A DNA stretch of 64,000 nucleotides, from contig DATLKF010000018.1 in the NCBI GenBank assembly GCA_035538515.1, positions 69,760 through 133,759 of the forward strand. The letters run 5' to 3'. The position numbers and the translations under genes were made by a program. Positions 29,188 to 31,005 of the stretch are shown one piece after another (within the stretch, counting starts at the first letter, position 1; the number at the start of each line of letters is the position of its first letter). The notes beneath the pieces were generated by a model. That model searched no databases and was not told the origin of the DNA. It saw only the letters and a program-made list of their open reading frames with translations. The stretch is from Gemmatimonadales bacterium (GTDB lineage Bacteria > Gemmatimonadota > Gemmatimonadetes > Gemmatimonadales > GWC2-71-9).

Positions 29188-30108
29188 CTAGACGGTGCAG
29201 GTGTTCACGGCTTCGCGCAGCGACGTAAGCGGGTCACGCGTGGGCACGAATTCGTGCGCCACGAATCCCGGAAAGCCGGTCTCGGCGATCGCGGTCGCGA
29301 TGGCATGCCAGTTGAGCTCCTGCGTACCGTCGAGCTCGTGGCGTCCGGGCACGCCTCCAGTATGAAAGTGGGCGATCCACTCGCGGTTGTCGCGGATCGT
29401 CCGAATGATGTCGCCTTCCATGATCTGCATGTGATAGATGTCGTACAGCAGCTTGATCCGCGGTGAGCCGACTGCCTTGATGACCGCGACGCCGAAGGCC
29501 GTGTGGTCGCCCTGATAGTCGGCGTGATCCACCTTGCTGTTCAAGAGCTCGACGCAGATCGTCACGCCGTGCTGCTCTGCCAGCGGCTTGATGGCGCTGA
29601 GTCCGGCGACGCAGTTGTCGATGCCCTCCGCGTCGCTCTTGCCGCGCCTGTTGCCGAACATCGCGATCACGTTCGGCACCTGGTGCTGCGCGGCGCGCGG
29701 GATCGTCTCTTCCAGCTCCCGCAACAGCATCGGGTGATTCGCGCGGTCATTGAACCCGGTTGCGATGAAATCGCGACGGGCGGTGGGATAGCCCATGGAG
29801 CACACCAGGCCTGCCTGGCGCACCGGATCCCAATCTTCGGGCTGCAACAAATCGATCGCCGCGAGCCCCATCCCCGCGGCCGCGCGGGCGAACTCGGGCA
29901 GCGGGATCTGCTGATAGGGCCAGCGTGACACGGATTGCTTCAGTCGGACAGTCGGACCGTCGGACGGTCGGACGGTAAATGACCGAGAGAGATCGGCTCC
30001 GGCGCTCGCGGGGAGGATCGCGGCGGCGACCGCTCCCACCGATGCCGCCAGGATCTGCCGACGCGTAACTGTCCGACTGTCCGACGGTCCGACTGTCCGA
30101 CGCCGCAT
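29188..30108 (-). CDS. Tat-exported xylose-isomerase-like TIM-barrel protein (hydroxypyruvate isomerase-like)
   Basis: MRRRTVGPSDSRTVTRRQILAASVGAVAAAILPASAGA is a Tat leader. It is followed by RLKQSVSRWPY, FGNRRG and HFHTGGVPGRHE. The ATG overlaps the upstream stop (ATGA). Confidence 0.85.
   Translation of the reverse strand: MRRRTVGPSDSRTVTRRQILAASVGAVAAAILPASAGADLSRSFTVRPSDGPTVRLKQSVSRWPYQQIPLPEFARAAAGMGLAAIDLLQPEDWDPVRQAGLVCSMGYPTARRDFIATGFNDRANHPMLLRELEETIPRAAQHQVPNVIAMFGNRRGKSDAEGIDNCVAGLSAIKPLAEQHGVTICVELLNSKVDHADYQGDHTAFGVAVIKAVGSPRIKLLYDIYHMQIMEGDIIRTIRDNREWIAHFHTGGVPGRHELDGTQELNWHAIATAIAETGFPGFVAHEFVPTRDPLTSLREAVNTCTV
29941..30102. repeat. Inverted arrays of 8-nt units (CAGTCGGA family) inside the 5-prime coding region, locus F
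   Basis: The left arm cagtcggacagtcggaccgtcggacggtcggacggt (29941-29976) faces the right arm actgtccgactgtccgacggtccgactgtccgacg (30068-30102). The 91-nt loop encodes the Tat signal h-region. Confidence 0.85.
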
Positions 30109-30953
30109 CAGAATTCGAGCTTCTTCAAGTACTCGCAGCTCGCGCGGATTGACTCGAACGGGTTCGCCGGCTGGTCGTGTTCGACGAAGAAGTGCTTGAT
30201 CCCCGCCTGGTCTTCCCGCGCGAAGATGCGCTTCCAGTCGATCGTGCCGGCCCCGACGGCGGCCATCTTGTTGTCGGGCGGGCCCATCGAGTCCTTGACG
30301 TGCACCATCGGAAAACGGCCGGGCCAGCGCGCGAAGTATGCCAGCGGATCCTGGCCGCCCTTCGTGATCCAGTAGAGGTCCATCTCCATCTGGACCAGCT
30401 TGGGATCGGTTTCCGCGAGCAGGATGTCGTACGGCAGCTTGCCCTCCACCGTCGTGAACTCGAAGTCGTGGTTGTGATAGGCGAACTGGAGCCCCGCCGC
30501 GTGCGCCTGCTCCGCCTTCTGGTTGAAGTCGCCCGCGATCTTCTTATAGCCGTCGACGCCGGTGCGCATCTCCACCGGAATCCAGGGGATCACAACGTAG
30601 CGGTGGCCGATCACGTGCGCCGCGTCCAGGGCCTCGTGCCACGCGTCGGGCGCGGCGGACCCGAAGTGCGCCGACGGGGCCGTCAGGCCGTGCCGGTCGA
30701 GCATCGCGCGTATGTCGGCCGGCTTCTTGTCGAAGTAGCCTGCGAACTCGACTTCCGTGTAGCCGGTGGCGGCCACCCGCGCCAGCGTCGCCTCGACGTC
30801 CTTCTTCATCTCGTCGCGCACGGTGTAGAGCTGCAGCCCGACGCGGTTCACCTTTCGAGGGGCTAGGGACTTGGGGCTCGGGGCTAGGGAAGGAAAGGCG
30901 TACGCCAGTACTGTCGCACCGAGTTTCTTCGTAAAATCGCGTCGAGTGGTCAT
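30108..30953 (-). CDS. Exported sugar phosphate isomerase/epimerase (xylose-isomerase-like TIM barrel)
   Basis: It starts MTTRRDFTKKLGATVLAYAFPSLA, then LQLYTVRDEM, GYTEVEFAG, YHNHDFEF and FFVEHD. Confidence 0.85.
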   Translation of the reverse strand: MTTRRDFTKKLGATVLAYAFPSLAPSPKSLAPRKVNRVGLQLYTVRDEMKKDVEATLARVAATGYTEVEFAGYFDKKPADIRAMLDRHGLTAPSAHFGSAAPDAWHEALDAAHVIGHRYVVIPWIPVEMRTGVDGYKKIAGDFNQKAEQAHAAGLQFAYHNHDFEFTTVEGKLPYDILLAETDPKLVQMEMDLYWITKGGQDPLAYFARWPGRFPMVHVKDSMGPPDNKMAAVGAGTIDWKRIFAREDQAGIKHFFVEHDQPANPFESIRASCEYLKKLEF

Positions 30954-31005
30954 CGTCTTATTCTCCCTAGTCCCTAGCCCCTAGCTCCTAGCCCCGAACC
31001 CCGAC
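30857..31005. repeat. Inverted arrays of 7-nt units (GGGCTAG/GGGCTCG family) spanning RBS, start codon and signal peptide, locus G
   Basis: gaggggctagggacttggggctcggggctagggaagg (30857-30893, coding for PSLAPSPKSLAP) faces ctccctagtccctagcccctagctcctagccccgaaccccgac (30963-31005, the 5-prime UTR including the SD gggag). The ATG at 30953 sits in the loop. Confidence 0.8.

Follow-up and report, generated by a model that had tools for sequence, protein, structure and literature searches.

Complementary tandem-repeat arms bracket Tat signal peptides in a Gemmatimonadales operon and belong to a REP-like repeat class

We analyzed a 64-kb stretch of DNA from a soil Gemmatimonadales bacterium (contig DATLKF010000018.1; hereafter the window) in which two adjoining genes for exported proteins each contain a signal-peptide segment enclosed by a pair of complementary tandem-repeat arrays, which we call arms. 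Homologues assign the organism to Gemmatimonadales. The two genes lie in a five-gene minus-strand operon divergent from argG, as identified by a Pfam scan and by reading of the open reading frames (ORFs). Gene 1 (minus strand, 30108..30953) encodes a xylose-isomerase-like TIM-barrel protein (Pfam accession PF01261) with a twin-arginine translocation (Tat) leader. Gene 2 (minus strand, 29188..30108) encodes a hydroxypyruvate-isomerase-family TIM-barrel protein (PF01261, assigned from Pfam and homologues). We identify the arms as members of an abundant class of hairpin repeats, spread across the lineage and similar to repetitive extragenic palindromes (REPs), an identification that is much firmer than any function. 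In the reading that we favor, and to which we give about an even chance of being correct, REP-like hairpin repeats reside in frame at the two insertion-tolerant edges of a signal peptide and would form a long-range mRNA stem that occludes the initiation region.

A repeat finder places the gene 2 pair at 29943-29976 and 30068-30101 (34 nt, 94% complementary, 91 nt between arms) and the gene 1 pair at 30859-30890 and 30964-30995 (32 nt, 84% complementary, 73 nt between arms). According to Tandem Repeats Finder (TRF), each arm contains 4.2-4.6 copies of an 8-nt unit (GTCGGACN) or a 7-nt unit (GGGGCTN / CCCTAGC). Translations and arm positions were read directly from the minus strand. The 5′ arm of gene 2 (30068..30101, 4.2 copies of GTCGGACN) begins 5 nt past the ATG and is translated as RTVGPSDSRTV in the n-region of the leader. 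The loop (29977..30067) encodes TRRQILAASVGAVAAAILPASAGA and DLSRSF, a segment that spans the twin-arginine motif, h-region and c-region. The 3′ arm (29943..29976, 4.2 copies of GTCCGACN, translated as TVRPSDGPTV) runs up to the codon that opens the mature domain (LKQSVSRW). The gene 2 ATG (30106-30108) overlaps the gene 1 stop codon as TGATG.

In gene 1, the 5′ arm (30964..31002) contains about 4.5 copies of GGGGCTA/GGGACTA and is G-rich on the mRNA. Its inner end is a Shine-Dalgarno (SD)-like GGGAG sequence (30963-30967), 9 nt before the ATG. The loop (30891..30963) holds a spacer, the ATG (30951-30953) and the Tat signal MTTRRDFTKKLGATVLAYAFP, and the 3′ arm (30858..30890, CCCTAGC/CCCCGAG units) is translated as SLAPSPKSLAP between the signal peptide and the TIM barrel. 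In Tat signals, an uncharged h-region and an A-x-A-like c-region come after an S/T-R-R-x-F-L-K-like motif. By direct reading rather than with a signal-peptide predictor, we identified TRRDFTK and LGATVLAYAFP in gene 1 and TRRQIL and AASVGAVAAAILPASAGA in gene 2.

A first-pass annotation of this DNA had described the arms as tandem arrays with many possible pairing registers, and its arm translations and its positions for the SD and ATG match our reading of the minus strand. Its description of arms that flank exactly the hydrophobic core was too narrow: the arms instead enclose everything from the twin-arginine motif through the h- and c-regions, plus a few more residues. The annotation had also proposed in-silico folding as a check, and the arms pair in both predicted leader structures. 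The gene 2 leader RNA has a minimum free energy of -116.5 kcal/mol (z = -7.0) and the gene 1 leader RNA one of -77.3 kcal/mol (z = -4.0); none of 200 shuffles was as stable in either case. The predicted stem covers the gene 1 SD and, in gene 2, begins 5 nt past an AUG that overlaps the upstream stop; the gene 2 type of geometry recurs in 13 related loci. The suggestion that pairing buries the gene 1 ribosome-binding region is thus supported by a very stable predicted stem. For gene 2, where looping-out of the signal peptide had been proposed, the predicted stem does enclose the leader and buries the region just 3′ of the AUG, but the loop is wider than the hydrophobic core.

Both pairs are far beyond chance. 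Using our own scorer, we identified 10 inverted repeats with a score of at least 16 in the window; ten Markov shuffles contained none and peaked at scores of 12-15. Chance complementarity of low-complexity coding sequence might have been invoked at 68% GC, particularly as the units are near-palindromic (GTC-S-GAC) and the arms consequently are also 79% direct repeats of one another. The shuffles, the folding z-scores and a bimodal distribution of scores over related loci (below) exclude this explanation. A search of the window against Rfam 15 returned 0 matches at the gathering score and nothing meaningful at E-value thresholds; sub-threshold coverage of the arms consisted only of miRNA-precursor look-alikes far below the cutoff.

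The arms recur at the same place in related loci. In each of 127 related loci, we sought the best inverted repeat within 330 nt upstream of where the mature domain begins (LKQSVSRW) and obtained bimodal scores, with a background at 6-13 and 16 loci at 17-28. In 15 of these 16 loci, 0-17 nt separate the end of the 3′ arm from the mature domain, and the 5′ arm is situated after the upstream stop and ahead of the twin-arginine motif. The remaining locus, L053 from Blastocatellia, has a pair ~180 nt upstream that does not bracket the leader. The score of L088 comes from two small local hairpins and not from tandem arrays. Loop lengths of the arm-bearing loci range from 56 to 153 nt. Three more arm-type leaders (L161, L163 and L165) also have complementary arms.

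Several observations indicate that the pairing of the arms has outlived their sequence. First, units vary by locus (GTCGGACN, GGAAGGTT, GGCCGGAC, GGACGCCC, GGGCGGAT, CGGGAAG/C and GGGGCAG), with at least six mutually non-complementary unit types among the arm-bearing loci. Second, mean arm complementarity is 20.2 within a locus and 7.5 between loci; orthologous arms are 60-66% identical between loci, and the enclosed loops ~49%. Third, an alignment of ten leaders contains 13 pairs that changed on both sides (reached in 1 of 500 shuffles) and has a covariation score of 0.245 versus 0.109 (0 of 500 shuffles). RNAalifold picked a register one unit off, with only 11 pairs; we instead counted the full-register helix explicitly, in which 74% of cells are paired versus 66% when shuffled and at most 45% when slid. 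Finally, gene 1 arms are complementary around the SD, ATG and signal in the window, L001, L081/L162, L084, L161 and L010, and have matching changes (CTA/TAG in the window versus CTC/GAG in L084). Comparison among loci thus shows that arm-arm complementarity has been actively kept while the unit sequence turned over.

We identified three unrelated leader types at the same place. Type II leaders have the form arm - V[TS]RR[EQD]A... - arm. Type I leaders (MDRRxAVAALGAAAFGS...ALKG...PRFSVG) have small tetraloop hairpins and no arms, and Type III leaders begin MTDRRRFLTASGV.... Armless Type I leaders of gene 2 orthologues are present in L002, L003, L082, L083, L084, L088 and L164 and also in L081/L162. 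The Type I linker has two or three perfect tetraloop hairpins within the coding sequence: CCCAGGC-TAAG-GCCTGGG (encoding QAKAWA), GCCC-TGAA-GGGC (ALKG) and CCCACGC-TTCG-GCGTGGG (PRFGVG). Two of these are mutually complementary, with a score of 16-17. Type III has a hairpin of its own, ACCCCGGGC-GCAA-GCCCGGGGT. Arm-type leaders nearly always keep both arms; the decayed cases are L097, P0059 and P0110. The refuting condition named in the first-pass annotation, relatives that carry the same leader without arms and show no expression difference, applies only in part: the close relatives that lack arms at this locus have unrelated leaders (Types I and III).

The leader has a history separate from that of the protein that it exports. 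A tree of the mature domain interleaves the three leader types. The mature parts of P0005 (Type II) and P0012 (Type III) are 95.6% identical and their leaders are unrelated, whereas P0005 shares only 88.8% identity in its mature part with P0004 and P0014 and has a nearly identical 50-residue leader. L161 and L162 share synteny (argH-argG <> iso1-iso2-GMC, with iso1 and iso2 for the isomerase genes) and ~90% identity except in a tract that starts in the middle of gene 1, with a left breakpoint ~700 nt inside this gene, and finishes with the leader. L163 and L164 are 96-100% identical over the 320 nt that end in ...GAGTTCTGATGG (TGATGG), cannot be aligned across precisely the leader, and are then 86-98% identical from CTCAAGCAG onward. 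We conclude from these alignments that the leader is exchanged as a block by recombination among close relatives, which explains the patchy arm distribution better than many independent gains. Repeated independent arm gains, as a mature-domain tree would imply, were considered and this view was revised, as leader and mature-domain histories differ. By the same comparisons, the 8-mer arm-bearing leaders belong to a single homologous type that recombination has spread; L085/L100 and L012, which have 7-mer arms, have other leaders and probably separate origins. There are two gene orders, argG<>iso1-iso2-GMC-G2DH3 and G2DH3-GMC-iso1-iso2 (L165 versus the window and L161-L164; G2DH3, Gluconate_2-dh3), and some comparisons may thus involve paralogous clusters or rearrangements. 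The L161/L162 and L163/L164 comparisons are each made within one shared gene order.

These results bear on whether the arms are a DNA rearrangement device. Under this explanation, the arms would serve as recombination sites at which the leader is inverted, deleted or swapped, yielding an export switch or signal exchange. The separate history of leader and mature domain (P0005/P0012/P0004; L163/L164) agrees with it and fits the earlier suggestion of a recombination-prone cassette boundary around signal peptides in one respect, that the leader is replaced as a block. The arms are not needed for such replacement. Arm units differ between genomes and so cannot supply homology for exchange, and the strongly conserved flanking coding sequence means that ordinary homologous recombination suffices, as the L161/L162 breakpoint deep inside gene 1 also argues. 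Inversion of the loop would leave the reading frame open at 10 of 13 loci, a proportion that is not above the 51% background. None of the ~25 arm-bearing leaders (13 loci, ~21 proteins and 3 further loci), compared without read-level data, contains an inverted loop; all are forward Tat signals. Members of the same class have loops of 8-16 nt, for which inversion would be meaningless. We therefore consider a rearrangement device unlikely.

Invertons and intragenic invertible segments, reportedly described by Jiang et al. in 2019 and Chanin et al. in 2024, resemble the leader pairs in having 15-35-bp inverted repeats around a short segment with start signals or coding sequence. They differ in that no second orientation was seen among our leaders and in that the same repeats here also occur with loops too short to invert. 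An inverton that produces protein isoforms was accordingly tried as a candidate and rejected, with no inverted loops found and in-silico inverted frames at background.

The arms are not confined to the two leaders. We identified ~20 arrays of 7-8-nt units in the window with TRF, nearly all with 4-4.7 copies (range 4.0-5.6), and arrays exceed the Markov expectation most strongly at 4 units. The arrays fall into three main unit families, GTCGGACN, GGGGCTN and GGAACGC/TGCGGAA, each represented by several near-identical copies (GTCGGACN at 851, 29943, 30068 and 39278). The blocks mostly form convergent pairs, mostly at gene boundaries. Across the window and related loci, the G-rich arm comes first in 32 of 36 tandem inverted repeats. 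An interpretation of this bias as a sign of transcription direction was rejected, because an inverted repeat reads alike on both strands; the bias is uninformative on direction. One of only three exceptions to the G-first order is a C-rich-first inverted pair of 8-nt units (CACGACGC / CGTGGCCT, loop 28 nt) at 9599-9670, between the convergent ORFs 8255-9586 (+) and 9639-10328 (-).

Seven further convergent pairs in the window each lie a few nucleotides from a start or stop codon. Two are AACGCGG/GTTCCGC pairs on the minus strand within the isomerase operon: one (27359..27461, loop ~40 nt) fills the spacer from the GMC oxidoreductase stop to the Gluconate_2-dh3 start, and the other (25440..25532) directly follows the stop of the last operon gene (GFO/IDH/MocA, 25531-26775). 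On the plus strand, an AGGGGCT/CCCTAGC pair with a short loop (13846..13917) lies between the stop of the ORF at 11564-13846 and an ATG 4 nt downstream, which begins a gene for an amidohydrolase with no signal peptide. A TGCGGAA/CATTCCG pair (40013..40124, +, loop 50 nt) is in the 5′ region of a UPF0047 gene (ATG ~40140), and a GGGGTTC/CCCGAGT pair (61757..61830, +) is immediately after the stop of the gene at 60445-61761. A minus-strand GGGGCTC/CCCCGAG pair (50468..50552, loop ~16 nt) stops 1 nt short of the GTG that begins an SDR-like gene; the frame of a large upstream ORF (50423-53521) runs through both arms of this hairpin. Finally, a GGAACGC pair (58731..58820, -) lies between the stop of a RuvX-like gene, which has a GTGA stop/start overlap, and a lipobox. 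The sole in-frame start there is a GTG that, if used, would put both arms in the n-region of a lipoprotein signal, MRTRKSERGALNTAWKVERLFRVPRSTFRVWLPLILTAC.

The same kind of pair at so many ordinary gene boundaries indicates a class and not a device private to the two isomerase genes. The proposal in the first-pass annotation of a built-in control element is upheld to the extent that pairing is kept at the same place in related loci. It does not hold as a feature peculiar to these leaders, because roughly ten further paired arrays in the window lie at ordinary gene boundaries, including those of genes without signal peptides.

Some blocks are unpaired. Four copies of GTCGGACN (851..882, -) lie in a 5′ untranslated region (UTR) ~15 nt upstream of an ATG, and another block (49645..49674) follows a stop codon. 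A third, with 4.5 copies of GTCGGACN (39278..39313, -), lies within a histidine-kinase gene (38760-39968), where it is in frame with the HisKA/DHp loop, encodes GRTVGESDSRTV and has no partner arm within 300 nt. We found no empty site for this block: the 120 best homologues (84-95% identical) all retain a variable segment of equal length, GRT[AV]GQ[SA]D[SR]RT, so no insertion event is demonstrable. The GMC oxidoreductase has STPEPRSPRPQSR at its N-terminus, encoded by a C-rich heptamer block (29134..29169, -). The window shares this block with L001, L003, L081, L084, L089, L161 and L162; L002, L082, L083 and L095 lack it and have a MIPQAKVYDV-like N-terminus.

Arrays of this kind, with other units, are also present in related Gemmatimonadales loci and in some loci of Acidobacteriota. 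The cultured Gemmatirosa kalamazoonensis KBS708 (CP007128, our L167) has convergent pairs of three 9-nt units at 23-100, 2656-2795 and 19622-19699, with units ACGCGGATC/GATCCGCGT, ACGCGGAGA/CTCCGCGTC and CGCAGAGGA/TCCTCTGCG. A block of the class is thus ~27-36 nt long and contains 3-4.5 tandem copies of a 7-, 8- or 9-nt unit. With three 9-nt units in Gemmatirosa against four 7-8-nt units elsewhere, it is arm length (~27-36 nt), rather than unit number, that is conserved.

Tandem heptamers known as short tandemly repeated repetitive (STRR) sequences are said to have been described in cyanobacteria by Mazel et al. in 1990. Our search for published analogues turned up the Xanthomonas GGGAATC repeat alone (PMC4692102). 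Xanthomonas GGGAATC repeats prefer four units, form 70-75 convergent pairs per genome and are located no more than 50 bp from ORF ends (Rehm et al., 2015; PMC4692102). Their type, single or paired, is conserved between species, and G-quadruplex formation has been proposed for them (PMC4692102). The arrays described here resemble the GGGAATC and STRR heptamers in their tandem 7-nt units, their approximately four copies, their dispersal in the genome and their convergent G-rich-first pairs. Most members in the window are at gene boundaries, and the two leader pairs and three unpaired blocks are translated. The arrays differ from GGGAATC repeats in having several unit families per genome, whose periods are 7 or 8 nt, or 9 nt in Gemmatirosa, and loops of up to 153 nt that contain host coding sequence, with both arms translatable. 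Moreover, pairing around one signal peptide is kept here across many lineages with unit turnover. G-tracts of at least three Gs are found only in the GGGGCTN family, and most units here cannot form a G-quadruplex.

This last difference bears on whether a G-quadruplex, or a protein that binds the tandem units, is the active feature instead of arm pairing. The GGGGCTN family has four G-tracts, the preference for about four units parallels that in Xanthomonas (PMC4692102), and many units contain GGA. However, GTCGGACN, GGAACGC and TGCGGAA have only GG and yet the same array length and pairing, and a quadruplex thus cannot be the common denominator. Gemmatirosa uses three units, several unrelated unit families in one genome would need several binders, and the covariation of the arms would be left unexplained. 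We regard this possibility as very unlikely.

The class also shares features with other repeats. REPs of proteobacteria are ~30-35-nt hairpin repeats present in hundreds of copies at gene boundaries and inside operons, with several families per genome; they affect mRNA stability, and also translation when within ~15 nt of a stop codon. REPs and the related BIMEs and REPINs are reportedly the subject of work by Higgins in 1982, Bertels and Rainey in 2011 and Liang et al. in 2015. The arms resemble REPs as hairpin-forming repeats on a ~30-nt scale at gene boundaries and in operons, with several families. They differ in that a REP is itself an imperfect palindrome of 20-40 nt with a conserved head, mobilized by a RAYT transposase and extragenic, whereas the arms are tandem arrays that may be far apart. 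We found no REP-type palindromic unit or shared head motif in the arm flanks, and a stem forms only between two arms.

Nor do the pairs have the makeup of transposable elements of the miniature inverted-repeat kind (MITEs): the arm loops are unique host sequence (signal peptides, SD and ATG) and different at every locus. We did observe a MITE-like element of ~183 bp, which is not of the tandem-unit kind, in two copies that are 84% identical (4870-5052 and 63423-63605). It has long terminal inverted repeats, TGCACAAGGGGAACGTGGGGCTGGGGTGGGACGCT ... AGCGTCCCACCCCAGCCCCACGCGACTTGGGCAGA, and a similar element is present in L001 (19732-19888).

Rickettsia palindromic elements, reportedly described by Ogata et al. 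in 2000, are a further parallel, as palindromic repeats tolerated in frame in coding genes, where they add surface or linker peptides. They are single insertions of 100-150 bp with a conserved core, unlike the two ~32-nt blocks that flank a host segment here. These elements are mentioned in PMC10969869.

How the arms may act can be proposed as follows. The blocks occupy what would be the only two insertion-tolerant places near the 5′ end of these genes: the 5′ UTR or the n-region before the twin-arginine motif, and the linker from signal peptide to mature TIM barrel. With blocks at both edges, the host-encoded signal peptide would have become the loop. Because a 7- or 8-nt unit cycles through the three frames, blocks would be translated as harmless peptides, rich in Gly/Arg/Ser/Asp/Thr/Val for G-rich blocks and in Pro/Ser/Thr/Arg for C-rich blocks. 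We infer that the maintained property is a nucleic-acid stem. Long loops disfavor cruciform extrusion in duplex DNA. With loops as long as those of the arm-bearing loci, extrusion is unlikely, which would place the stem in mRNA or in transiently single-stranded DNA.

The predicted ~32-bp mRNA stem would hold the gene 1 SD and begin 5 nt after the gene 2 AUG, and an arm start just past this AUG is repeated in all arm-bearing relatives. The stem thus probably occludes the initiation region, in which case the folded RNA could not be expected to admit a free 30S subunit. Translation of gene 1 would then depend entirely on ribosomes that load during transcription, before the 3′ arm is made, and that of gene 2 on ribosomes handed over from gene 1 via the UGAUG overlap. 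A ribosome-free transcript would close into a ~32-bp duplex and become a substrate for a double-stranded-RNA nuclease (RNase III). A regulatory effect of the arms on translation is, in this sense, plausible. In the Min Jou interaction of the MS2 coat and replicase cistrons, a distant complement closes the start of the downstream cistron and ribosomes translating upstream open it. Closure of an initiation region by a complementary segment is demonstrated in MS2 and only predicted here. The arms also differ from the MS2 case in that the closing segment is downstream of the initiation region within one gene and in that repeat arrays form both sides of the pairing.

Every genome examined has a strong hairpin in the spacer that separates the GMC oxidoreductase gene from the Gluconate_2-dh3 gene, with unrelated sequences (L161 5990-6300, L162 6550-6800, L081 8593-8816 and window 27359-27461). 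In the window these hairpins are tandem arrays; elsewhere they are non-repetitive stems of 20-25 bp. Their recurrence fits a structural requirement at defined positions of the operon. Structure also recurs in the linker of armless leaders, as the small tetraloop hairpins described above.

Several observations weigh against the favored reading. Many close orthologues have armless leaders, and armless leaders at the same locus imply that the arms are dispensable for the gene. L003 has gene 1 arrays on both sides that are not complementary, and L097 has lost one arm. Sense-strand mismatches of the G:U and A:C types number 19:13 (p = 0.38) and provide no RNA-strand signature. Unpaired blocks occur in a kinase loop and at the N-terminus of a cytoplasmic enzyme, as tolerated junk would. 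In addition, homogenization between genome-wide copies or template switching could keep complementarity without selection on RNA.

The same observations support a serious rival, that the arms are neutral or selfish hairpin repeats without a role in expression or export. Under this explanation, a DNA-level process would spread the blocks and keep the arms complementary; candidates are slippage with intramolecular template switching, quasi-palindrome correction and conversion among dispersed copies. The patchy distribution and functional armless alleles, the dispersed near-identical copies within each unit family, the unpaired blocks, the decayed or non-complementary cases (L097 and L003) and the lack of a G:U excess are all as expected. 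However, template-switch correction is efficient for short spacers, and the loops here are 56-153 nt. Complementarity is kept across lineages in which the loops have diverged to ~49% identity, unrelated hairpins recur at the same intercistronic site, and the strong G-first bias and narrow range of arm length would need an extra assumption. We regard neutral repeats as possible, at well under an even chance.

A bolder variant combines self-propagation with recruitment by the host. The blocks would be a previously unrecognized self-propagating element, copied as convergent pairs independently of a transposase and with length and complementarity policed but the unit sequence able to vary, which the host recruits as RNA clamps that close initiation and gate the synthesis of export proteins by ribosome traffic. 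We consider this doubtful. A more extreme form of this idea would have the clamp allow the signal segment to be skipped or rearranged, giving exported and cytoplasmic isoforms.

The remainder of the operon encodes a GMC oxidoreductase, a Tat-signal Gluconate_2-dh3 subunit and, as the last gene, the GFO/IDH/MocA oxidoreductase; the Pfam scan covered nine proteins of the window. A sigma-70 promoter scan identified no minus-strand promoter upstream of gene 1. On the plus strand, a predicted argG promoter (TTGACA 31049 ... TATGTT 31076) is overlapped by an 18-bp palindrome at 31065-31106, TTTATGCA-N6-TGCATAAA-like (CCTCTGTATGTTTATGCA / TGCATAAACCTACGGAGG), and a similar motif, TGCATAAAC, is present in L084. 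This palindrome looks like a candidate operator in the divergent argG/isomerase control region.

The repeat class itself has a published precedent in the Xanthomonas GGGAATC repeats. What is new here is that the class occurs in Gemmatimonadota and Acidobacteriota, where it has several unit families and periods, that it does not depend on G-tracts, that it resides in frame on either side of Tat leaders and that there is evolutionary evidence of kept pairing. Many large GC-rich bacterial genomes are enriched in heptamer-type repeats, and the present locus adds to the published Xanthomonas description in three respects. A four-unit, ~30-nt convergent architecture that holds for units unable to form quadruplexes and for periods of 7, 8 and 9 nt suggests that stem length and pairing, and not G-quadruplex formation, are the constrained property. 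The leader arms provide a natural evolutionary experiment, in which one signal peptide in many lineages has had its arm sequence turned over and its complementarity kept, and the pairs of Gemmatirosa kalamazoonensis offer a possible experimental system. In-frame blocks at signal-peptide edges also affect how genes are called and signal peptides predicted in metagenomes of Gemmatimonadota and Acidobacteriota. Should the stems indeed gate initiation, they would represent a widespread and easily evolvable way to tie translation to ribosome traffic in poorly studied soil phyla.

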